Positions 3,307-40,062 of a DNA stretch of 50,155 bases are shown piece by piece. Numbering within the stretch: the first letter of the stretch is position 1; each line of letters starts with the position of its first letter. The DNA comes from a virus. Its lineage: Duplodnaviria; Heunggongvirae; Uroviricota; Caudoviricetes. The notes beneath the pieces were generated by a model. It had not been told where the DNA came from, ran no database searches, and saw only the letters and a program-made list of their open reading frames with translations. Made by a program: the position numbers and the translations under genes. Location: IMG/VR virus record IMGVR_UViG_2870479586_000004; one strand, given 5' to 3'.

Positions 3307-3882
3307 CTACGGCAGTGCTGGCCATTCAATATCCTGTGCAGTTGACGTATCAACACGGTTCAGCAACACCCGATACTTTTTCCAGGCTTCCAGCAATGAG
3401 GTTTCTTCCTCCGTTGCGATTTCCAGATCTACAGCATCCTGAAGTGGCGCAATATGCTCACTGGCTACCTGCATCAGGCTGTTTTTTGTTTCTTCCGCCT
3501 CTCGGATCCGGAACAGTTTTTCTGCTTCTGCATCTTTCACCCAGGCTGTGCCGTTCCACTTCTGAAACTCCCCTTCCGGCGATAACCAGGTAACATTTTC
3601 CGGTAACGGACCGAGTTCAGAAATAAATAACGCGTCCCCTGACGCTACGTCATAAACCGTTTTACCCCGATGGTCTTCAACGAGATGCCACGATGCCTTA
3701 TCACTGTTGAAAACAGCCACAAAGCCAGCAGGAATATCTGGTGGTGCAATATCGGTACTGTTTGCTGGCAGACCTGTATGAGGCGGAATATATGCGTCAC
3801 CTTCACCAATAAATTCATTAGTTCCGGCCAGCAGATTATAAATTTTTATGGTCCGTGGTTGTTCACTCATTCTGAATGCCAT
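3307..3882 (-). CDS. tfa: tail fiber assembly protein (Tfa)
   Basis: 191 aa; recalled similarity to lambda/Qin Tfa; immediately downstream of stf. Confidence 0.9.
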
Positions 3883-6848
3883 TATGCAAGCCTCACAATA
3901 TAGTTAAATGCGATGTTTTTGACGGTGTTTTCCGCGTTACCAGCAGCGTTAACGGTGATGGTGTGTCCATGTGAACCAATCGCAACGGAGTGCGTATGAG
4001 CACCAATACCGACAGTATGCGCGTGTGCACCTGCAGATGCTGCTGTGCCGGACAGTGAATGGCTATGATTACCATCTGTACTGGTATTCGCTAACCACCC
4101 CGTAGACATACCTACTGAGCCTTGTACACCCCAGGTATTTTGACCTGAGCTTGTATAACCATATTGATAAGTATCTTTAAAAACACTGGGGTTAAATCGA
4201 CGGCCATCTCTATGGCTGTGATTACCAGCTGCATTCGTGCTGCCACTTAAACTATGGGTATGCGCACCAGTGTTATTCGTGGATTTAGTGCCGTAATCAA
4301 ACGACGATGTGTTTTTCGTCCCCAAATCCGTACTGGATGCGCTGGCGCTGTGGGTGTGCGATTTAATGCCGTCCTGTTCCTGAGACAATACGGCACGACC
4401 ACTGGCGGGTTTGCCCTTAATCGTCCAGCCACGCATATCAGGGATCACGCCTGACGGATAAGCGGCTGCAAGTTTCGGGTATGCAGATTTGTCAAAAGTC
4501 TGCCCCTGCATCAGGGCATAGCCAGACGGAACGGTATCTGATGGCCACGGGATTGGTGCGCCAGGCGGATAAAACTGCTCTGATGGCGTATAGAGTGAAT
4601 AAACTGTACCGTCCGTTAACCCTTCCGGCTTATTAGCAGAATATGCTGGTGACGTATGAATCGTCACGCTGGCATTACTGGTATAATCCCATTGAATATT
4701 TACACCAGTCGCATAATTTCCGATTGCAACGTAAATATCGTAAGTATCACCAGATGTATTGACCCAGGCAAAATTTGTAAACCCTGTCGATGTGCGCTGC
4801 CATAAAGCACCAGTAATCCCCTTCGGATTACCATTACCTGCACGTAAAACAAGTTCAGATATACCTGCCTGTTGAGGTGACCCCACGTTAAATCCAGCGC
4901 CACCAATCAACGTAATTGAAACAACAGAACTCGCCTGTGGCATGGTTACCGTTGCTAATTTGAACCAACCAGCACCACCGCTGAATGACATTGTTGTTGA
5001 GTTAAGCGTACCAATATCTTTCGGCGTCAGTGTTATATCCGCTGAAAGCGCCTTACCATTCACCTTACGGGCAGAAGGTACCCGACCATTCGCATTGTCA
5101 TTAGCTGCTTTCACTGCTTTCGGTGTCGCAGCAAGCGTTTCAGATGTGCTGTTGGTTGCACTACTGAGCTGGACAATTCCTTTTTGTGCTGTCGTAGCGT
5201 CCTGTGCGGTGTATTTCCCGTTAGCCAGGTCATACGCGGCCTTAACGGCTTTTGGCGTTGCCGCCTGTGACTCGGAAGTGCTGTTAGTCGCACTGCTGAG
5301 CTGAACTATCCCTTTCTGTGCTGTCGTTGCATCCTGTGCGGTGTATTTCCCGTTAGCCAGGTCATACGCGGCCTTAACGGCTTTTGGCGTTGCCGCCTGT
5401 GACTCGGAAGTGCTGTTGGTCGCACTGCTGAGCTGTACTATCCCCTTTTTCGTCGTGCTCGCATCCTCAAGCGCCACGGCGGATGCAATATCCTCTGCCC
5501 GTTTTGCTGCTGTCTCGGCGCGCGTTGCCGCGGATTCCGCCGTACTTTTGCTCTGTGCTGCCGCTGCCGCACTGCCAGCAGCCTCTGTCGCCTTCGTGGA
5601 TGCCGTCGTGGCGCTGCCCCTCGCTGCTGACGCCTGTCTGGTCGCCTCATCTTTTGAAGCAGACGCAGATGATGCCGATGACGCCGCCGAACTGGCGGAC
5701 GATGCGGCAGCCGTTTTTGAGGATTCTGCGCTGGTTTCCGACGCTTTCGCGTTCGTTTCGGATGTCTTCGCTGCGGAAGCAGACCTCGCTGCTGCGCTGG
5801 CCTGTTCAGTGGCTTCGCCAGCCTTCGTTGTGGCTGTTGAAGCGGATGATGCGGCGCTTTCTGCCGATTTTCCGGCGGCGGTGGCACTGACTGCTGCCTT
5901 CTCTGCCTTAATGGACGCCTCACGGGCCGATGATGCAGCTGCTGTCTCAGAGTCTGCCGCAGCTGAGGCGCTCTGTTCCGCTGCCGTTTCAGAAGACCTG
6001 GCATTCGTCTCGGACGTTTTTGCCGCCTTCACGGAATTTCCTGCCGCCGTTGCCGAGGAGGCTGCACTGCTGGCGCTTGTGGAGGCGTTCGTTTCTGATG
6101 ATTTCGCTGCCTCTTTTGAGGCCGCCGCATCCCGGGCTGAAGTGGCGGCTTCTGACGCTTTCGTCGTCGCAGTGGATGCAGAAGTGGCTGCTGATTTTTG
6201 TGACGCTGCAGCATTCGTTTCTGACGTTTTCGCCGCACCGGCACTGGTGGCCGCCGCGCTTTTTGAGGACTCTGCAGCGGCAGCACTTTTTGATGCTTCA
6301 GTGGCCTTTGTTGATGCCGTTCCTGCGCTGGAAGACGCCTCCTGAGCCGAAGTCGCGGCCTGTCCGGCTGACGTGCTGGCTGCACGCGCTGAGCCTGCAG
6401 CATCAGTCGCATGGGTTGCCGCCTCACGGGCTGATGTGCTGGCATCGCTGGCTGACTTCTTCGCGGCGGCTGTGTTCTGTGCCACCGCGGACGCGTTACG
6501 CGCCACCTCTTCCACCATCAGTTCAAAACGTCGCAGTGCCTCCGGACGGGCATCATCCTCCGTCATGGCACCGAGAAAATCATTCAGCGTACCGGGTTGA
6601 GAATCTTCATACACGGTGATGGTCCCGGCATGTGACGGCGGGAATCCCTCCACCAACAGAATAACGCTGTACTGACCGTACTCAACGTCCATACTGTAAC
6701 GCCCGGCTTCATCCGGATTTTCTGAGGCCAGCGTGTTCACCACCACAGTGGTACTGTTACGTTTTGCTTTCAGCTGGATTGTGCAGTTCTGTACCGGTTT
6801 TCCTGTGCCGTCTTTCAGTACACCTGAAATCTTTACTGCCATATTCAC
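3882..6848 (-). CDS. stf: side tail fiber protein (Stf), 988 aa
   Basis: N-terminus [29 protein letters not shown]... typical of lambda Stf; long Ala/Ser/Thr-rich shaft; 45-aa unit repeated three times; His-rich C-terminal region (HSHSLSG...[14 protein letters not shown]). Confidence 0.9.
5077..5452. repeat. tandem coding repeat inside stf, about 132-135 bp x3 (first copy diverged)
   Basis: Near-identical DNA copies at 5209-5340 and 5341-5450 with a diverged copy upstream; encodes the triplicated 45-aa unit [44 protein letters not shown]. Confidence 0.8.
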
Positions 6849-33186: not shown

Positions 33187-34275
33187 TTACGCCAGTACGC
33201 CAATTGCCAGCGCGCGATCGATAAAACGAAATATCAGCTCCAGTTGGGAGCCATACTTATCTTCAAATGCCACTGTATCCGTATGCAGCTCGTTGTGATG
33301 CTTTCTGCACAAAGGCAACACAAAGAGATCATGTGCTTTTGTTCCCATTCCGCCCTGCCCGTGACCAATCAGATGATGCGGATCGTCGGCTGGCATACCG
33401 CAGCAAGCACACGGCTGTGTCTTAACCCAACGTGTGTATTTCTCCTTAACCCAGCGGCGACGTTTAGGCAGCTTCATGAAAGATTCCGGAGACTCTGGAT
33501 CAACGGTGATGCTTACCACCGTCTTTTCCTGTGGTGATTTTTGTTGCTGGTGGGCGTAAGGCAACGGTGCAAGATTTTTTGTGCGTTGTTTCAATATGCT
33601 GGTGGCGGTCTGCTCTCCCGGTACGATGTCGCTTTCGCGGTACACCGAGCAGATTTTTTCCGCTGGTAATCCCAGCGAACGACGCGATACAGCCTCAGGT
33701 AGTGCATCCACCACCTGATTGCAGACCGCCCACCAGGATAATTCAGCCAAAGATAATTCCCGCTCCTGCGTACCGCTTATTGCGTGACGGATGACGTCAA
33801 TCACCCATGCTGTCAGATTTTGTTGAGCAAGCAGCTCCAGTGATTCCGATGTCTGGTCACGCAGTTGGTTGTCGCAGTGCCAGCACAACACCATTGCGCC
33901 GGTACCATAACGGTGAATGACTGTTTCAGTGTGATGGTAATCGCCATTAGGCCACTGGCAGGATGTAACATGACGTAATAGCCAGTCGGACAATGCGCCA
34001 ACGCCGCCAGCAGCACGAATCACCCGTTCGTTACTAAAAAACGGCAGCAATGTTTTGTCTTCCGCCAGCGGCTGGCGAACGGCAGGAACGACTCCGGATG
34101 GCAGATTACGCATGCTTTTTGGTTCCGGTTCCACCAGCACTCGAGGATTATGAAATATCTGTATGGATTCACGGCCCGGCTTAAGGACCACCAGCCCAAG
34201 CTCAGGCACCAGAACAGGTCTAAGTAATACCCGCACGTTACCTCCAGATCCGTTGCTGGAAAGTGCGGGACGCAC
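33187..34275 (-). CDS. ydfU: DUF968-family prophage protein (YdfU-like) with C-terminal Cys/His-rich HNH-like motif; true start probably internal
   Basis: Recalled similarity to Qin YdfU; C-terminal CACCGMPADDPHHLIGHGQGG...CRKHHNELH. Confidence 0.7.
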   Translation of the reverse strand: MRPALSSNGSGGNVRVLLRPVLVPELGLVVLKPGRESIQIFHNPRVLVEPEPKSMRNLPSGVVPAVRQPLAEDKTLLPFFSNERVIRAAGGVGALSDWLLRHVTSCQWPNGDYHHTETVIHRYGTGAMVLCWHCDNQLRDQTSESLELLAQQNLTAWVIDVIRHAISGTQERELSLAELSWWAVCNQVVDALPEAVSRRSLGLPAEKICSVYRESDIVPGEQTATSILKQRTKNLAPLPYAHQQQKSPQEKTVVSITVDPESPESFMKLPKRRRWVKEKYTRWVKTQPCACCGMPADDPHHLIGHGQGGMGTKAHDLFVLPLCRKHHNELHTDTVAFEDKYGSQLELIFRFIDRALAIGVLA

Positions 34276-34516
34276 GTGGTGGGCGTTCGGAATAAGGCAG
34301 CCTGACAGAGATTATCCAGTGCCGATAGTCGAGACTGAGAGCTTTCTTAACCTCGAACCCGCGCCTGCGGTAAGAATGAATCAGCCATTCGGCCTGTTCT
34401 GCAGTGCATGGAGGGTGCTGGAACCATTCAGACTTGAATGCGTGAGAATACCGCCCGTGCGTGCAGGCAAGAACGGGCGAATTATCAGAATTGTAATATT
34501 TTGCGTTGCGTGCCAT
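34238..34516 (-). CDS. hypothetical protein, 92 aa
   Basis: ORF between rem and ydfU; no family recognised. Confidence 0.35.
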   Translation of the reverse strand: MARNAKYYNSDNSPVLACTHGRYSHAFKSEWFQHPPCTAEQAEWLIHSYRRRGFEVKKALSLDYRHWIISVRLPYSERPPRASRTFQQRIWR

Positions 34517-34582
34517 CGGTTTTCTCCGGTGGCACGGTGTTACTCAGCGGGAGTTCAGCCCCGCGCAAGATTGTAGATGAGT

Positions 34583-34834
34583 TTATTCTCCTGAAAAAGC
34601 AGAAAAGCCAGCTTTTATTCCGATCTCTTTCAATGCCTGTAATGAAGTGACAAACTCACCTTCGCGCAAGATAAATCCGTCCGTGACCCGAGCATCCACA
34701 AAATTAATTAACGCAGCCCCATTCTTTCGCAAACACATAATGCGGTAATGACTAACAAGATTTCCATTTTCAACGCACACAGCATAGAGGCCATCTTCAC
34801 AAAAAATTTTACGCAGTTCTTCGATGTTCATCAT
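34583..34834 (-). CDS. rem: Rem-like small prophage protein, 83 aa
   Basis: MMNIEELRKIFCEDGLYAVCVENGNLVSHYRIMCLRKNGAALINFVDARV...; name from recalled Qin gene rem downstream of hokD. Confidence 0.65.
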   Translation of the reverse strand: MMNIEELRKIFCEDGLYAVCVENGNLVSHYRIMCLRKNGAALINFVDARVTDGFILREGEFVTSLQALKEIGIKAGFSAFSGE

Positions 34835-34950
34835 CAGAATCCTTCCGGATAATTAGCTCTCCCCTTTAAGGGACCATCCCTCTTATCCCTGCGCGCTACT
34901 TAAGTATTTTTGATTCTATTCCGGCACCGTCCAGAACTTCAAACGCGTTG

Positions 34951-34982
34951 AAAATAAAAACAAAAACCCGCCGAAGCGGGTT
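34951..34982 (-). terminator. intrinsic terminator downstream of hokD
   Basis: Minus-strand hairpin AACCCGC-TTCG-GCGGGTT followed by TTTTTGTTTTTATTTT. Confidence 0.7.
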
Positions 34983-35050
34983 AAGTGCGGGTGCGTTGAG
35001 GATGCCTGCCACATCAGAGGTGGCGAGGGATTTCTCCCCCGCCGGGTCTC

Positions 35051-35206
35051 TTACTCCTCAGGTTCGTAAGCTGTGAAGACAGCGACCTCCGTCTGGCCGG
35101 TTCGGATTCGTACCTCGCAGAGGTCTTTCCTCGTTACCAGTGCCGTCACTATGACGGTTAAACAGATGACGATCAGGGCGATTAACATCGCCTTTTGCTG
35201 CTTCAT
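35051..35206 (-). CDS. hokD: Hok-family type I toxin (host-killing small membrane protein), 51 aa
   Basis: Minus-strand translation MKQQKAMLIALIVICLTVIVTALVTRKDLCEVRIRTGQTEVAVFTAYEPEE matches recalled HokD/RelF; below the ORF-track size cutoff. Confidence 0.9.
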   Translation of the reverse strand: MKQQKAMLIALIVICLTVIVTALVTRKDLCEVRIRTGQTEVAVFTAYEPEE

Positions 35207-35277
35207 AGCCTGCTTCTCCTGTCAACGCAAAGCAGAAGTGTCACCTTCGGTGCGAAACAGAGATGTCATGCTTTGGT

Positions 35278-35565
35278 TCAGAGAATGCGTTTGACCGCCT
35301 CGCTATATACTTCCGAGCGTTCTCTTTTCCCAACAGAAATCACGAAAACGACAACTTTCTCGTCTATAACCTGGTATACAAGGCGATAGCCTGAAGACCG
35401 GAGCTTAATCTTGTAACAATCAGGCATACCACGGAGCTTGTTTGCTTCAATCCGGGGTGACTCAAGTACTTCAACCAGCTTCTTTTTCAACTGTTCACGT
35501 ACCGTCGAGCCCAGCTTTCGCCATTCCTTTAGTGCCCGCTCGTCAAAATCCAGAAAATACGCCAT
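35278..35565 (-). CDS. relE: RelE mRNA-interferase toxin, 95 aa
   Basis: MAYFLDFDERALKEWRKLGSTVREQLKKKLVEVLESPRIEANKLRGMPDCYKIKLRSSGYRLVYQVIDEKVVVFVISVGKRERSEVY... Confidence 0.95.
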   Translation of the reverse strand: MAYFLDFDERALKEWRKLGSTVREQLKKKLVEVLESPRIEANKLRGMPDCYKIKLRSSGYRLVYQVIDEKVVVFVISVGKRERSEVYSEAVKRIL

Positions 35566-35804
35566 CAGAGTTCATCCAGCGTCACACGTACTGGCTTAGG
35601 ATTACGAAGCCGTTCTTTCACTATCTCCACAAGTTCAGCATCTTCATCACTCAGGAGTGTCTGTTTGAACGGCAAGCGTTCATTGTCAGCGATATACTCG
35701 AGCATGAGACGAAGCGCTTCAGAAGGAGTTACACCCATTTTTTCAAGCGCGGCGTAAGAACGCGCTTTAAGTTCATCGTCAATACGCAGGTTAATGCTAC
35801 CCAT
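35565..35804 (-). CDS. relB: RelB antitoxin, 79 aa
   Basis: MGSINLRIDDELKARSYAALEKMGVTPSEALRLMLEYIADNERLPFKQTLLSDEDAELVEIVKERLRNPKPVRVTLDEL; start overlaps relE stop. Confidence 0.95.
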   Translation of the reverse strand: MGSINLRIDDELKARSYAALEKMGVTPSEALRLMLEYIADNERLPFKQTLLSDEDAELVEIVKERLRNPKPVRVTLDEL

Positions 35805-35828
35805 GTCTTACACCTCTTGTAATTACAA

Positions 35829-36134
35829 ATGTCATTACAAGTATCGCACTACAACATGCTTAGGGCAAGTCACGAAGGAAGTCAGAAAGTAGTCGTAAGA
35901 ACGGTGATCACTGTCCGCTTTGTGCCAGGAGCAGCCATTGCTAAGTCCATCCTGTATTGTGCAGGTCAGCTCGTTTTTAAAGAGTCCGGCCATCATCTTA
36001 CTGGTACAGACACCATATACTTTGTGACGGTCAGGCTACATATGCACAACTCAACTTATTCATCTATTTTTTGCTTTAGCATGTCAGTGTTGCTTTCTCG
36101 TCGGCGGGTGAGCGGTGACCTGACCTGTCGATAA
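35829..36134 (+). CDS. hypothetical ORF, 101 aa, possibly YdfV-like; weak support
   Basis: ORF divergent from relB; composition not strongly protein-like; kept only because a gene is recalled here in Qin. Confidence 0.25.
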   Translation: MSLQVSHYNMLRASHEGSQKVVVRTVITVRFVPGAAIAKSILYCAGQLVFKESGHHLTGTDTIYFVTVRLHMHNSTYSSIFCFSMSVLLSRRRVSGDLTCR

Positions 36135-36336
36135 AGGAACGTAGCACGTTTTATGCAACACCCGCATGCGGCAGAAAATTATTGCCGAACGTTTACCCCT
36201 GTCAACAAGCTTTACTTTCTGAGGCGCGCCAGCCCGCGAGGAAAACAATCTGAACATCAAACAATTAATGACACAAGAAATACGATTAAAGATTTTTTTG
36301 TGCATGCCGATAGTGCTTTTTTAAAAGGAGAAATCT

Positions 36337-36669
36337 ATGTCTGTCACAATTCAGGGAAATACCTCAACCGTTATTTCAAACAACTCCGCCCCGGAAGGAA
36401 CATCAGAAATAGCCAAAATCACAAGACAAATTCAGGTGCTGACTGAAAAGCTTGGGAAAATCTCATCGGAAGAGGGGATGACGACACAGCAGAAAAAAGA
36501 AATGGCTGCATTGGTACAGAAGCAAATTGAAAGCCTCAGGGCTCAACTGGAGCAGTTGTTAAGGCAGCAGGCAGAGAAAAAGAATAAAGACGCGACAGTT
36601 CAGCCTGATAAAAAAGAAGAGAAAAAAGACGATACAAATACCGCTGGCACCATTGATATTTACGTCTAA
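36337..36669 (+). CDS. flxA: FlxA-like protein, 110 aa
   Basis: MSVTIQGNTSTVISNNSAPEGTSEIAKITRQIQVLTEKLGKISSEEGMTTQQKKEMAALVQKQIESLRAQLEQLL...; AAGGAG RBS upstream. Confidence 0.85.
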   Translation: MSVTIQGNTSTVISNNSAPEGTSEIAKITRQIQVLTEKLGKISSEEGMTTQQKKEMAALVQKQIESLRAQLEQLLRQQAEKKNKDATVQPDKKEEKKDDTNTAGTIDIYV

Positions 36670-36683
36670 GTGACAGCCGTATT

Positions 36684-36708
36684 GTGGCCCTCATCGGGCC
36701 ACTTTTCG
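36684..36708 (+). terminator. intrinsic terminator after flxA
   Basis: Hairpin GTGGCCC-TCATC-GGGCCAC followed by TTTTCGCC. Confidence 0.65.
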
Positions 36709-37105
36709 CCATCAGCCTTTTCTTTAAAGACATATTATCTTTGTATCATTTCTGATAGTTAACATTACAAGATATAAGTAATGGACGCACTCCCAATTAG
36801 TCTATTTAAATCGCCACGAGTTTAACTGACAACCCATGATCAATTATGAATTGCAACTATTTCTGTAGTCACTTTTGTGGGGACAGTCCACAAAACTGCC
36901 AACTTCCGCTTCTTGCTCTTAGCGGACATTAGCATAGGCTATTTACCATAACGCCTCATTACGCGCACCGCCCAGACTGACTCAGCGCGTTTCTGGCATA
37001 TCCCCGGTAAAACAAGTAACAAACCACCCGAAAATGAACACCAGAAACGCGACTTAAGAATCTACCCTATGAATGGATATGCACTCAACCGAATCGATCT
37101 TGGTT

Positions 37106-38447
37106 TCAATCTTTTTTATCGGGATCAGGCTTCTTTTTAGGTAACTTCGGGGGCTTAACTTGCTGATGACTTTGCGTTCGGCGCGTAAGCCAGGGATGGT
37201 CAGCTTTAGGTTTAACATAGTATTTTGAGCGTAAATCAATACGGGCATTATCCACTCGTTCATGGACACTCTTTTCATCATCCAGTGGTATAGGCTCCGG
37301 GCCATCAACATACTTTTCCCAGCCCAGCGCTTTCCCGTCATACAGAACGTTAATTTCACCGTCAAAGTTCTCGCATACAGTAACAACCGAATGCCTAAGT
37401 CGATATCCCCGGCCCTCACTGCGTACCTGAAACGCACTGCTTTTGTACTGGAAAGTGAGATTTTTAGACAGAACGCGCTTCGCCTGTAGGCTGAAGATAT
37501 AACCCAGTTCCTCTTCAGAATGGTGCACATCAAGATGAGCATTATCAGTAGTACGAGGCGACGTAGCGAACCGGTTGTTATAGGCTTCAATAAAGGTCGG
37601 CAACCATGCATTTGCTGTTTCAATATCACTGATATTCTGAAGCCGCATTTCTTTGACCAGCCTGTCCTGTAGTGTCTGATTGGCGCGCTCTACCCGCCCT
37701 TTTGCCTGCGGGCTGTTGGCATGGATTGGCTCGATGCCCAGTGTCTTTATCGCACGAGTGAACTGGGTCAGCTCACCTTCCCGCTCTGGGTTATTTACCC
37801 TGAATATACTGTGTCTATCAGAGTAGAGAGCGAGCGGTACGCCATGATCATTAAGGTAACCCCGGAGGGTTTCCATGTAAGCCCGGGTTGTTTCAGCAGG
37901 CACAAAACGCAACGCCATCAACGCACTGGTGGTATCATCAATGAAAACGATCAGTGTACATCTGGGGCCTCGATTTTCAAACCAGTCATGAGGTGAGCCA
38001 TCAATCTGGATCAGTTCACCGTAAGAGGGTCGTCGCATGCGGCGTTGATATATACGGGCAATTTTACGACGGCGTTCACGCCATACCCCCCTCTTCTATC
38101 ATCCACTTTCTGAGAGTTTCAACGGATAAAGATAAACCGTGTATCTCGCGCAATTTTTCGCACGCAAACGTAGGTCCAAAATCAGCGTAACGGCCTTTGA
38201 GGAGTGAAATTACTGTTGCTCTGAATTCAGTAGAAAAGGAATTATTAGGACGCTTTCCACGTCGGTGGGAAACCAGACCAGAAGGCCCTTCATTTCTATA
38301 CCGTTGCACCAGACGTTTAACCTGCCGAATAGAAATGCCAATGCGTGCCGCAGCTTGTTCCTGAGTAATATGTCGATTAATTGACTCCTGAATAATCTGA
38401 AGTCGGTGGAGTTCCTTATGACTCATCGTAACAGTTTCTTTGGTCAT
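37106..38447 (-). pseudogene. DDE transposase (IS481/ISNCY-like) split into orfA (38076-38447) and orfB (37106-38038) at a C6 homopolymer (38086-38091)
   Basis: orfA has an HTH (ARIGISIRQVKRLVQRY); orfB has an rve core (IQIDGS...FIDDTTS...SPQAKGRVERANQTLQDRL); removing one base fuses them into about 446 codons; a -1 shift would not reach orfB. Confidence 0.7.
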
Positions 38448-38594
38448 GAAAAATCCCCCAGAGAATTGTCTGGGGACATTTTAGAATGGTTCAAAGGGGA
38501 CATTACAGCTTGGTGTTAACAATAGCCTGCTTCTCCTGTGTAAGTTCACAGAGATATTGCAATTGCCTCCGGATAAGTAAGGGGAGATTGCACT

Positions 38595-39683
38595 ATGCAA
38601 ATGCAGCATCTGATGGTTGGCTATCCTAAGTACTACCAAACGGCCGATTATGCGTTGAGGCTTTCAGTGATGGCTGATATAGCAACAATGAGAATGAAGG
38701 CTCTGCACTTCTGGGATAAACACGGTATTTCTGCAGCTTCTGAAGCCTTTGGCGTGTCCTGCCGCACGCTTTACTGGTGGCGTCAGTTACTGAACAAGGA
38801 AGGACCTGAGGGGCTAATCCCGCACAGTAAGGCACCTCTGGTGCGACGAAAAAAACACTGGCATCCCGATGTGCTGAAAGAGATTCGACGCCTCAGGACA
38901 GAGCTGCCGAACCTCGGTAAAGAGCAGATTTTTGTTCGCCTGAAGCCCTGGTGCGAACAGCGCTATCTGGCCTGTCCGAGTGTTTCCACCATCGGCAGAA
39001 TGATCGCTGCCGCACATGATAAAATGCGGATGATACCTGTGCGTCTGGGATCGCGGGGGAAGGCACTGCTTGTCAAAAAGCGGTCTGCCAAACCCCGCAG
39101 GCCAAAGCACTACCGCCCGGTAAAGACAGGTGAGCTCATTGGGATGGACGCCATTGAGCTCAGAATGGGCGAACTGCGTCGCTATGTCATCACCATGATC
39201 GACGAATGCAGCAATTACGCGCTGGCACTGGCTGTGCCGTCACTCAACAGTGATATCGTCAATCACTTCTTCAGCCGCGCAGCCCGGTTGTTCCCGGTCG
39301 GTATCAGCCAGATAATCACAGATAACGGAAAAGAGTTCCTGGGAAACTTCGACAAAACGCTGCAGGAAGCCGCTATCAAACACCTCTGGACCTATCCCTA
39401 CACGCCAAAAATGAACGCTATCTGTGAACGTTTTAACCGGACGTTAAGAGAGCAGTTTATTGAATTTAATGAGATTTTACTCTTTGAAGATCTGGCGCTA
39501 TTTAACCAGAAGCTGGCGGAATATCTGGTGCTGTATAACAGCAAAAGACCCCACAAGGCGCTCGCACTAATGACGCCCGTGGAATATATTTTAAAAGAGA
39601 ATAAAAATTGCAATATGTGGTGGACCCATACATCTCCTTGCCTTTCGGCACGTAAGAGGCTAACCTACATGTGTCTGGCATGA
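38595..39683 (+). CDS. DDE transposase, rve family (IS481-like), 362 aa
   Basis: N-terminal HTH (FGVSCRTLYWWRQ), rve core (GMDAIEL...ITDNGKEF...NAICERFNRTLRE). Confidence 0.75.
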   Translation: MQMQHLMVGYPKYYQTADYALRLSVMADIATMRMKALHFWDKHGISAASEAFGVSCRTLYWWRQLLNKEGPEGLIPHSKAPLVRRKKHWHPDVLKEIRRLRTELPNLGKEQIFVRLKPWCEQRYLACPSVSTIGRMIAAAHDKMRMIPVRLGSRGKALLVKKRSAKPRRPKHYRPVKTGELIGMDAIELRMGELRRYVITMIDECSNYALALAVPSLNSDIVNHFFSRAARLFPVGISQIITDNGKEFLGNFDKTLQEAAIKHLWTYPYTPKMNAICERFNRTLREQFIEFNEILLFEDLALFNQKLAEYLVLYNSKRPHKALALMTPVEYILKENKNCNMWWTHTSPCLSARKRLTYMCLA

Positions 39684-39882
39684 AATTGGCCTCAGATTAA
39701 TGTTAAGCGTCTTGCAGGACGCGTAATGTTAACTGGGGCTTTTCTCTACCTGCCGTTGGTGTTCGTGCCCGAGGCAGATAGCCTCAAGCACCCGCAGTCA
39801 TTCTACTTAACTAAGATTTCCCCGCAAACCGTTTTTGTCCAGCACAGTAAATATCCAACTAAACCAATGGAGTTCGCTGTAT

Positions 39883-40062
39883 TTACCGCCAGTATTCAAT
39901 GCACATGACCGCCATGAACACCCCTAAAAAAAGGGCATTTATATATCCAAATATTAATATCAAAACATCAACTTTTTCCATATACCTTGCTGTGAAGATG
40001 ATGGGCATACATGATGCGAACAACCAGAACGCAACAAACAAAAACTGCAATGCGTTTTTCAT
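39883..40062 (-). CDS. hypothetical small membrane protein, 59 aa, two predicted TM helices
   Basis: ATG at 40062 preceded by AGGAGG 5 nt upstream; MKNALQFLFVAFWLFASCMPIIFTARYMEKVDVLILIFGYINALFLGVFMAVMCIEYWR. Confidence 0.55.
   Translation of the reverse strand: MKNALQFLFVAFWLFASCMPIIFTARYMEKVDVLILIFGYINALFLGVFMAVMCIEYWR

Follow-up and report, generated by a model that had tools for sequence, protein, structure and literature searches.

Two unrelated DDE elements appear to have struck one prophage hok locus a single base apart, the larger being a relBE-carrying transposon

How do two transposase genes of different kinds come to stand head to head, 147 bp apart, in a prophage? The question is raised by the virus record IMGVR_UViG_2870479586_000004 (Duplodnaviria; Heunggongvirae; Uroviricota; Caudoviricetes), a DNA of 50,155 nucleotides that we call the window, and that holds a Qin-type lambdoid prophage from its tail genes through to its integrase. 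Beside flxA, two genes that each code for a helix-turn-helix (HTH) and a DDE domain diverge from a spacer at 38448-38594. A previous reading, made from the sequence alone and called here the sequence-only reading, had noticed this arrangement: it estimated the spacer at about 150 bp, described the two genes as unrelated-looking, saw no terminal inverted repeats, and left three options, namely two adjacent elements, one composite element, or remnants. The description of the genes and of their place next to flxA is correct, and BLASTP between the two proteins, which belong to different families, gives only E = 0.001 over 61 residues. Terminal inverted repeats, on the other hand, are present in both elements, together with target-site duplications, and each element is found alone in other genomes: of the three options, the two adjacent elements stand, while the composite and the remnants fall. 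The interpretation that we propose, with a probability of about 0.88, is that two unrelated DDE elements struck the Shine-Dalgarno region of one prophage hok gene one base apart, and that the larger of the two is a transposon that carries relBE.

The smaller element is delimited by an empty site. E. coli 13E0767 (locus L001) lacks the plus-strand gene but has 99.9% identity to the window on both flanks: its sequence joins window position 38537 to 39633, and the two pieces of the alignment overlap by 6 bp. The insertion is therefore 38538..39632 on the plus strand, a complete insertion sequence (IS) of 1095 bp with TCTCCT on each side, the left copy at 38532..38537 and the right copy, also apparent from the junction itself, at 39633..39638. 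Its ends read GTGTAAGTTCACAGAGATATTGCAATT ... AATTGCAATATGTGGTGGACCCATACA, the right end being the complement of TGTATGGGTCCACCACATATTGCAATT, and form imperfect terminal inverted repeats, (G)TGTA...ATATTGCAATT and its complement. The open reading frame (ORF) at 38595..39683 (plus strand, 362 aa), apparently intact, carries an HTH plus rve/rve_3 domains; it scores 221.4 bits against NF033577 transpos_IS481, just under the curated cut-off of 224 (E = 1.7e-65, profile positions 2-283 of 284), and its counterpart in E. coli E2348/69 is named 'IS481 family transposase' by the Prokaryotic Genome Annotation Pipeline (PGAP). This ORF has no stop inside the IS and reads 51 bp into the flanking hok-leader DNA, as it does in copies L010 and L013. 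Members of the IS481 family are ~1-1.1 kb long and have one ORF without a frameshift, inverted repeats at their ends and a short duplication (6 bp in IS481 itself), a format that this element shares. Plasmid copies that share its ends are 93-97% identical to it, the named relative ISKpn28 is 75% identical, and, judging by its intact ORF, the element of the window may be active still.

What did this IS strike? The 16 bp on its left, ATAGCCTGCTTCTCCT, recur in the window at 35205-35220 (0.27 chance matches expected), directly upstream of the start of hokD; their reverse complement, AGGAGAAGCAGGCTAT(G), is the ribosome-binding site and start of hok. The toxin gene hokD itself lies at 35051..35206 on the minus strand (PGAP gives hokD at the matching coordinates of L001, which is 99.96% identical here). 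On the other side of the IS, at 39633..39793 on the minus strand, stands an orphaned hok leader, the mok/sok regulatory region: the Rfam model sok (RF01794), which covers the hok mRNA leader, matches in full length at 39627-39793 on the minus strand with 100.5 bits (gathering score 59, E = 1.3e-22). In E2348/69 and in another strain, hokD, the 16-mer, the IS and the leader are contiguous, and the intervening 3.3 kb are not there. Thus, a Hok-family toxin ORF is present, and so is an intact leader, but the two are separated by 4.4 kb of inserted DNA in the window, and by 3.3 kb in K-12-type strains: the locus is a disrupted hok locus, and not an intact member of the hok/sok type.

The 3.3 kb that E2348/69 lacks form a second element, at 35220..38521 on the minus strand, of 3302 bp. 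It is flanked by a 15-bp duplication, ATAGCCTGCTTCTCC, whose left copy, at 35205..35219, is repeated exactly at 38522..38536; the last 5 bp of the right copy are overlapped by the left TCTCCT of the IS. The start codon of hokD (CAT on the plus strand, 35204-35206) overlaps the left copy by 2 nt, and the reverse complement of this copy is the hok Shine-Dalgarno sequence with the first two bases of the start codon. The element begins with TGTCAAC at 35220 and ends with GTTAACA at 38521, in agreement with the TGT...ACA rule of the IS1202 family and its imperfect repeats of ~24-26 bp: the transposase-distal terminal inverted repeat, TGTCAACGCAAAGCAGAAGTGTCACC (35220..35245, plus strand), matches the transposase-proximal one, TGTTAACACCAAGCTGTAATGTCCCC (38496..38521, minus strand), at 19/26 positions. 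This match contains no exact 7-mer seed; it was spotted by eye at the junctions and verified by a script, its binomial P is ~4e-7, and 35220 is the best partner of the transposase-side end anywhere in 34000-38400. At the transposase end, a second copy of GGGGACATT (repeat family D8) lies 24 bp further in, while at the relE end, as read from the sequence, all that recurs with this spacing is ATGTC. Three pieces make up the spacer between the two transposase genes: the transposon end contributes 74 bp, the target DNA 16 bp, and the IS end 57 bp.

From left to right, the transposon consists of a left arm with the end repeat, relE (35278-35565, minus strand) and relB (35565-35804, minus strand), which form a type II toxin-antitoxin pair, a cargo with ydfV (35829-36134, plus strand) and flxA (36337-36669, plus strand), and a right arm with the transposase and the other end repeat; the gene names are those of PGAP in L001. 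The minus-strand transposase is not part of a 1.6-kb IS beside flxA; it belongs to this 3.3-kb unit, whose other end lies past relE, outside the stretch that the sequence-only reading considered. Once repaired (see below), the transposase has the format of the IS1202 family, a single ORF of ~400-500 aa with an N-terminal HTH and a DDE/RNase H core, and the 15-bp duplication, perfect at six loci, fits the lengths typical of its subgroups (5-6, 15-17 or 27-28 bp). The size does not fit: simple ISs of this family have ~1.3-2 kb, but this unit, which contains relBE plus cargo, measures 3302 bp in the window and 2575-12,859 bp in other places. It is more aptly called a transposon with a transposase of the IS1202 family. 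Of the two elements, the IS481-type one is thus an ordinary complete IS with clear ends, and the other has ends equally clear, but is not the IS as catalogued.

The boundaries of the transposon are the same, to the base pair, in other hok loci. The IncF plasmid pEnt261 of Enterobacter asburiae matches the window only at 35202-38537, with 99.4% identity, and there the same block splits a different hok/mok locus. At six hok-type loci the junctions follow one pattern, a 15-mer, then TGTCAACGC...GTGTTAACA, then the same 15-mer; these six loci carry five different 15-bp sequences, each of which matches its own hok locus. The duplication is ATAGCCTGCTTCTCC at the Qin hokD (window, E. coli 13E0767 and K-12 DH5alpha), ATGGCCTTCTTCTCC both in pEnt261 and, with a different leader, in E. 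adelaidei pECC3473_01, ATCATAGCCCCTCCA in the IncI-gamma/K1 plasmids of Salmonella and E. coli (at a Hok/Gef gene next to trbA), ATAGCTGACTTCTCC in the 12,859-bp version of Phytobacter pMRY16-398_1, and ATAGCCTTTTTCTCC in K. pneumoniae p44-1.

We now turn to the transposase of this transposon, at 37106..38447 on the minus strand, which is identified by profile match, by mapping of indels against intact copies, and by the names that PGAP gives it. It is present as two ORFs, 38447..38076 (123 aa, with the HTH domains HTH_28/HTH_32) and 38038..37106 (310 aa, with the DDE domain), which score 113 and 316.5 bits, respectively, against NF033594 transpos_ISNCY_2 (cut-off 250); PGAP places it in the family ISEsa1, as 'IS1202-like element ISEsa1 family transposase'. 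As the sequence-only reading had it, the gene is split at a C6 run (38086-38091), its fusion takes one base fewer, and a -1 programmed frameshift of the IS3 type is not the explanation: intact relatives are one base shorter at the run, where they read G5T or G4TT on the coding strand, and the removal of one G yields a single ORF of 446 aa, the length that PGAP gives for intact copies. The gene 'ydfW' (37106-37255) is the C-terminal tail of the broken transposase. PGAP annotates the chromosomal copies of K-12 and other E. coli as pseudogenes. The lesion is an ordinary +1 homopolymer mutation that has left a pseudogene, with no programmed frameshift.

Just upstream of the transposase start, at 38455..38476 on the minus strand, lies the hairpin that had been described as terminator-like, with a stem of 8 bp and a loop of 6 nt, followed by ATTTTTC and the transposase ATG. 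Both the inner GGGGACATT repeat (family D8) and the likely ribosome-binding site of the transposase overlap with the hairpin, which belongs to the conserved transposon end. Its presence is confirmed, but the fold of the 92-nt region is not significantly better than that of shuffled sequences (z = -0.83), and we dropped the idea of a free-standing structured RNA. Most likely, the hairpin and its U-run would block read-through from outside and/or mask the ribosome-binding site, as in many ISs. A divergent promoter shared by the two transposase genes was also considered and rejected: no sigma-70-like sites are found in 38380-38680, and the spacer consists of two element ends and target DNA.

Different versions of the transposon have constant arms and a variable cargo. 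The first 713 bp (end repeat, relE and relB) and the last ~1.6 kb (transposase and end repeat) are common to the cargo versions; the variable stretch corresponds to ~35932-36900 of the window, the first ~100 bp of ydfV being inside the constant left arm. The window and K-12 carry ydfV and flxA; elsewhere their place is taken by chr/ncr, CDF or LysR-type cargo, for example, one unit of 6093 bp holds a CDF transporter plus a nested IS110, and one of 4487 bp holds a LysR regulator together with two membrane proteins. The pair relBE is in every cargo version examined, and no other accessory gene is common to all of them. Matches to the ISEsa1-type transposase are found in more than 1400 PLSDB records, and on many plasmids the match covers 36901-38521 only. 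The four such cases that were examined (L005, L008, L009 and L014) all have an ncr nickel-resistance cluster on the distal side; in pMS7884B and in the Phytobacter plasmid, which were traced further, chrBA follows, and then, ~11 kb on, relB-relE and an end of the 35220 type. The Phytobacter unit measures 12,859 bp, with its perfect duplication. Position 36901 is, on this evidence, a cargo boundary and not the end of an element, which would explain why ISEsa1 is recorded with 1609 bp, an inverted repeat (IR) of 15/22, and neither a duplication nor a target.

Three side observations concern the cargo. At 35939-35964, 7 bp inside the left cargo boundary 35932/35933, stands the runner-up among the matches to the end repeat (17/26, TGCTAAGTCCATCCTGTATTGTGCAG); it may have been left by a former inner end at the place where cargo is exchanged, or it may be a chance match. 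In Enterobacteriaceae MGYG-HGUT-00110 (L017, ~3475-6049), a copy of 2575 bp sits at a site that is not recognisable as hok, between the imperfect duplication copies ATCCGCTGTGAATCC and ATCCGTCGTGAATCC (13/15), and an unrelated ORF of 333 aa replaces most of its transposase gene. In Citrobacter freundii p2_CFTMDU (L035), a Tn3-family transposon replaces most of the ncr cargo.

Several other explanations of the locus have to be weighed against the two separate insertions. The two transposase genes might be two arms of one mobile unit, a composite or compound element: they are adjacent, divergent and 147 bp apart, and K. pneumoniae p44-1 shows the whole layout of the window once more, in another hok locus where ISKpn28 takes the role of the E. 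coli element. However, the inverted repeats and the duplication (15 bp against 6 bp) are separate for each element, target DNA lies between them (38522-38537), their transposases come from different families, and at this hokD site either one is also found without the other. The allele with the transposon only, found in E. coli 13E0767, is common and includes K-12, whose Qin prophage, a comparison that the sequence-only reading had proposed, lacks the IS481-type element; the allele with the IS only is that of E2348/69 and others. Both elements together are found in 0/5426 complete E. coli genomes (query window 36900-39900, coverage of 80% or more), which places the window in a rare lineage or outside the genomes surveyed, and we regard the composite element as next to impossible. 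Expression of the split transposase by a programmed frameshift at the homopolymer, which the slippery-looking G6 run might suggest, is extremely improbable: the fusion would require a +1/-2 shift, the intact homologues are single ORFs, and the chromosomal copies are called pseudogenes. It could also be asked whether the 3.3-kb block was spread by homologous recombination between hok flanks, the 15-bp repeat being no more than conserved hok sequence, since Shine-Dalgarno and leader motifs are common to hok loci, and plasmids and prophages recombine often. That would leave four facts without an explanation: the block begins and ends at exactly the same base even where the hok flanks of the loci have diverged too far for BLASTN; the 15-mer is single in uninterrupted loci, as in the left flank of E2348/69, so that it is a true duplication; the repeat differs between loci while its two copies are identical within a locus; and the ends are the TGT...ACA inverted repeats typical of the family. 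We thus hold recombination to be very improbable. Finally, the minus-strand gene might be ISEsa1 just as catalogued, with relE, relB, ydfV and flxA as mere neighbours in the prophage. The ISfinder data tabulated by Harmer and Hall (PMC10132070), namely 1609 bp, IR 15/22 and no duplication, speak for it, as do the many plasmid matches that start at 36901. But all four of the examined matches of this kind adjoin ncr, the two that were traced on reach relB-relE and the 35220-type end, and perfect 15-bp duplications flank the larger units. A partner for the transposase-side end was sought around the catalogued end (~36897-36913): nothing in 36800-37100 matches it above 14/26, and the GGACATT-like motifs there point the wrong way. 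There is only a slight chance that the catalogued extent is the right one.

Are hok loci really the target of these elements? A scan of one genome per species, with the 21-nt transposase-side end as query, gives 16 loci, and in ~13/16 of them the transposase-side end abuts, by eye, hok-type sequence of the form ...CTCC/TTGC[CA]TT...AAGAGGCT, where the slash marks the junction. The Rfam model sok, at its gathering threshold, matches directly beside the transposase-side end at 8 loci, six of them from the scan, together with L005 and L006. Bar exceptions, the orientation of the transposon is constant, with the relE end toward the hok coding sequence and the transposase end toward the leader. The IS481-type and ISKpn28 elements, for their part, sit at ...CTCCT/T of hok ribosome-binding sites in Qin, in an E. 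coli IncF plasmid, and in Klebsiella and Citrobacter plasmids. There they have a single orientation and a 6-bp duplication at five hok-locus copies, which reads TCTCCT, CCTCCT or ACTCCT (for same-ended copies in plasmid hok loci, CCTCCT in L010 and L013, TCTCCT in L034, and ACTCCT in L035). Hok-family toxins are annotated beside elements in L006, L010, L013, L016 and L034.

A number of observations weigh against targeting. The duplication at the Kluyvera locus L020 has 13 bp and is shifted by 2 bp; L017, with its 13/15 duplication, and L032 are not in recognisable hok loci; in L028 the transposase-side end meets hok in the opposite orientation; and pMS7884B has a hok left flank and an unrelated, rearranged right flank. 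Many of the ~1600 Klebsiella plasmid copies may descend from few insertions, and hok loci are homologous to one another, so that conserved flanks alone are no proof that the transposase reads that sequence. No transposition experiment on these elements was found in the searched literature. Copies of the IS481-type element with the same ends also occur at non-hok sites (L011 and L012), among them one between galF and yegH (L011) and one in a ColV plasmid, and ISKpn28 is also found in mgrB, according to PMC6101004: the preference of the IS481 type for hok is a bias, and not a strict specificity. The clustering might reflect survival, insertions being retained where they disarm a toxic hok, or in dispensable plasmid and prophage DNA. 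In favour of such selection, two unrelated transposase families use nearly one position here, and ISKpn8 breaks the hok leader of pEnt261. The unrelated elements IS150 and IS186 are also said to adjoin hok genes in E. coli K-12 (reportedly a result of Pedersen and Gerdes, in 1999). Yet selection alone would not yield one base-pair position and one orientation at six or more loci, and the transposon leaves both the coding sequence and the ribosome-binding site of hok intact; we consider this explanation unlikely. What the comparison of loci suggests is that the transposases themselves would recognise the hok site directly.

Four loci of this survey deserve a separate remark. In pEnt261 (L004, 4424-5790), ISKpn8, of the IS3 family, interrupts the same hok leader ~90 bp past the transposon, a third unrelated element in one hok locus, which adds to the impression that hok loci collect insertions. 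In L035, at ~6005-6050, the last 11 bp of the right end of ISKpn28 (GGACCCATACA) come directly after the transposase-side end, and ACTCCT and a complete ISKpn28 come next, which looks like an insertion beside an IS-IS junction, either a tandem dimer or a circle junction. In Kluyvera sp. STS39-E (L032, 6628-6741), an Rfam isrO match of 58.8 bits (gathering score 42) overlaps the end repeat and the flank: either the target is different there, or the isrO model includes related sequence. In E. coli FAHZZU7007 (L011, 1204-2298), the copy between galF and yegH is 94% identical to the IS of the window; its flanks, TTGCCT and TTGCAT, form no clean duplication, which suggests an IS-associated deletion, and in K-12 the colanic acid cluster lies between these two genes.

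Given two separate insertions, the most probable history is the following. A Qin-type lambdoid prophage would at first have had a complete hok/mok/sok locus in its nin region. The transposon 35220-38521 would have inserted by transposition, with cuts staggered by 15 bp that duplicated ATAGCCTGCTTCTCC, and this would have placed hokD and one copy of the ribosome-binding site just downstream of relE, in the order relB-relE-hokD of K-12, while the mok/sok leader was stranded on the far side of the transposon. The IS481-family IS of 1095 bp would have entered the leader-side copy of the same sequence, with the duplication TCTCCT. Both elements appear to enter hok loci in a fixed orientation, with the start of the transposase nearest their mutual junction, so that orientation-specific insertions one base apart would produce the head-to-head arrangement of the genes; the independent hok locus of K. 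pneumoniae p44-1, with ISKpn28, presents the same layout. The transposase would later have gained its +1 homopolymer frameshift, leaving the transposon immobile unless a transposase acts in trans. Either order of the two insertions yields the same final sequence. The IS lengthens the direct repeat that surrounds the transposon to 18 bp (35205-35222 and 38522-38539), since both elements start with (T)GT; recombination between its copies would excise the transposon precisely and restore the exact arrangement of E2348/69, so that IS-only loci of this type could arise from the type of the window.

The gene hokD keeps its ribosome-binding site, in the left copy of the duplication, and follows relE by 72 bp. 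It may be read from the relBE promoter, free of the control of sok, which would fit the relBEF operon of K-12. Just downstream of hokD, at 34961-35042 on the minus strand, a weak isrK-like Rfam match (25 bits, against a gathering score of 50) is probably only a GC-rich terminator hairpin. Beyond the leader, the DNA varies by strain and includes defence-like genes: an HNH endonuclease plus an AAA ATPase in E2348/69 (L002, 4417-6412), and a KwaB-like Kiwa protein in Z1323HEC0355 (L003, 4511-6150), while the same place in the window and in K-12 holds decayed pseudogenes (methyltransferase, DUF7167).

A broader claim, to which we give somewhat better than even odds, is that ISEsa1 represents the transposase arm of cargo transposons that form an undescribed family, with relBE as the addiction module of the backbone, 15-bp duplications, and an orientation-fixed homing, precise to the base pair, to the Shine-Dalgarno region of hok/sok loci. 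The hok locus, a conserved addiction locus of plasmids and prophages, would serve as a safe landing site whose regulation is disarmed by an element that brings a toxin-antitoxin pair of its own, the K-12 relBEF would be the scar of an insertion, and the unrelated IS481-type lineage would have converged on the same site. As a pair, the two genes of the window look ordinary, being elements of known families at one site; it is the hok-targeting relBE transposon that looks undescribed. In the searchable literature, whose coverage is incomplete and which leaves ISfinder and TnCentral outside, we found no description of an ISEsa1-type transposon that targets hok or carries relBE, and no account of the true extent of such elements, of their 15-bp duplication, of homing to hok, or of relB-relE-hokD as a scar. 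If the claim is right, the catalogue entry of ISEsa1 is corrected in its ends, its duplication length and its target, none of which were found for this subgroup by the 2023 paper on the IS1202 family, and this would be the second lineage of that family, after the dif-targeting ISAjo2 group, with precise and orientation-specific targeting without accessory proteins. The target would be a toxin-antitoxin locus typical of conjugative plasmids and prophages, and two unrelated transposases one base apart at the hok ribosome-binding site would point to a special feature of the DNA. In K-12, ydfV, flxA and ydfW/intK, known as 'Qin prophage' genes, would become parts of a transposon, as would the order relB-relE-hokD. 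The clusters for resistance to chromate and nickel that are common on plasmids of Klebsiella and Enterobacter belong to the large version, so that where this transposon really ends, and what it targets, also matters for plasmid annotation.

It remains to compare these elements with known systems. The closest is ISEsa1 itself (ISfinder; IS1202 group or family, formerly ISNCY): the transposase is near-identical, the transposase-side end is the same, and plasmid copies have 99.3-99.7% DNA identity; the copy of the window is frameshifted. ISEsa1 is listed with 1609 bp, IR 15/22, no duplication and no target (PMC10132070), whereas the mobile unit described here has 2.6 to 12.9 kb, relBE plus cargo, 19/26 repeats, and sits in hok loci with a perfect 15-bp duplication that contradicts the 'no TSD' (target-site duplication) of the entry. 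Elements of the IS1202 family have TGT...ACA ends and repeats of ~26 bp, with a second, inner repeat copy as an extra transposase-binding site, and their HTH + DDE transposases are related to TnsB of Tn7 (PMC10132070); they are simple ISs of ~1.3-2 kb, a few of them with one passenger gene, and the duplication lengths of their subgroups include 15-17 bp, the class of the ISTde1 subgroup (preprint 10.1101/2022.12.17.520857). The ISAjo2/ISAba32 subgroup, which targets dif/pdif sites, resembles our transposon in the type of transposase, the TGT...ACA ends, the imperfect repeats of ~26 bp, and, as far as the transposase end is concerned, the extra internal repeat, and it inserts in a site- and orientation-specific manner without accessory targeting proteins (PMC10132070). 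Its members, however, are ISs of 1.5 kb with 5-bp duplications, located 5 bp from the XerC arm of dif-like sites, and the transposon of the window has 15-bp duplications, hok loci as sites, and several kb of cargo.

For the smaller element, the likeness to ISKpn28 extends to the length of 1095 bp, the end sequences, the 6-bp duplication, and the same position and orientation in plasmid hok loci, but with only ~75% nucleotide identity it is an unnamed relative, which PGAP labels simply 'IS481 family transposase' or 'integrase core domain-containing protein'. As for the locus, the study of Pedersen and Gerdes (1999) is said to have found hok loci of E. coli K-12 disrupted by IS150 or IS186, and hokD 'rearranged'. 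Here as there, insertions lie near the toxin frame and not inside it, and hokD follows relBE without its mok/sok leader; the difference is that a transposon insertion, defined to the base, here accounts for the 'rearrangement', and that the missing leader is located. Finally, transposons of the Tn3 family reportedly carry toxin-antitoxin pairs as well (Lima-Mendez and co-workers, 2020), with a type II pair constant in the backbone beside a variable cargo, as in our transposon; the latter differs from them in the family and mechanism of its transposase, in the position of the pair, at the end opposite to the transposase, and in its insertion into another toxin-antitoxin locus.

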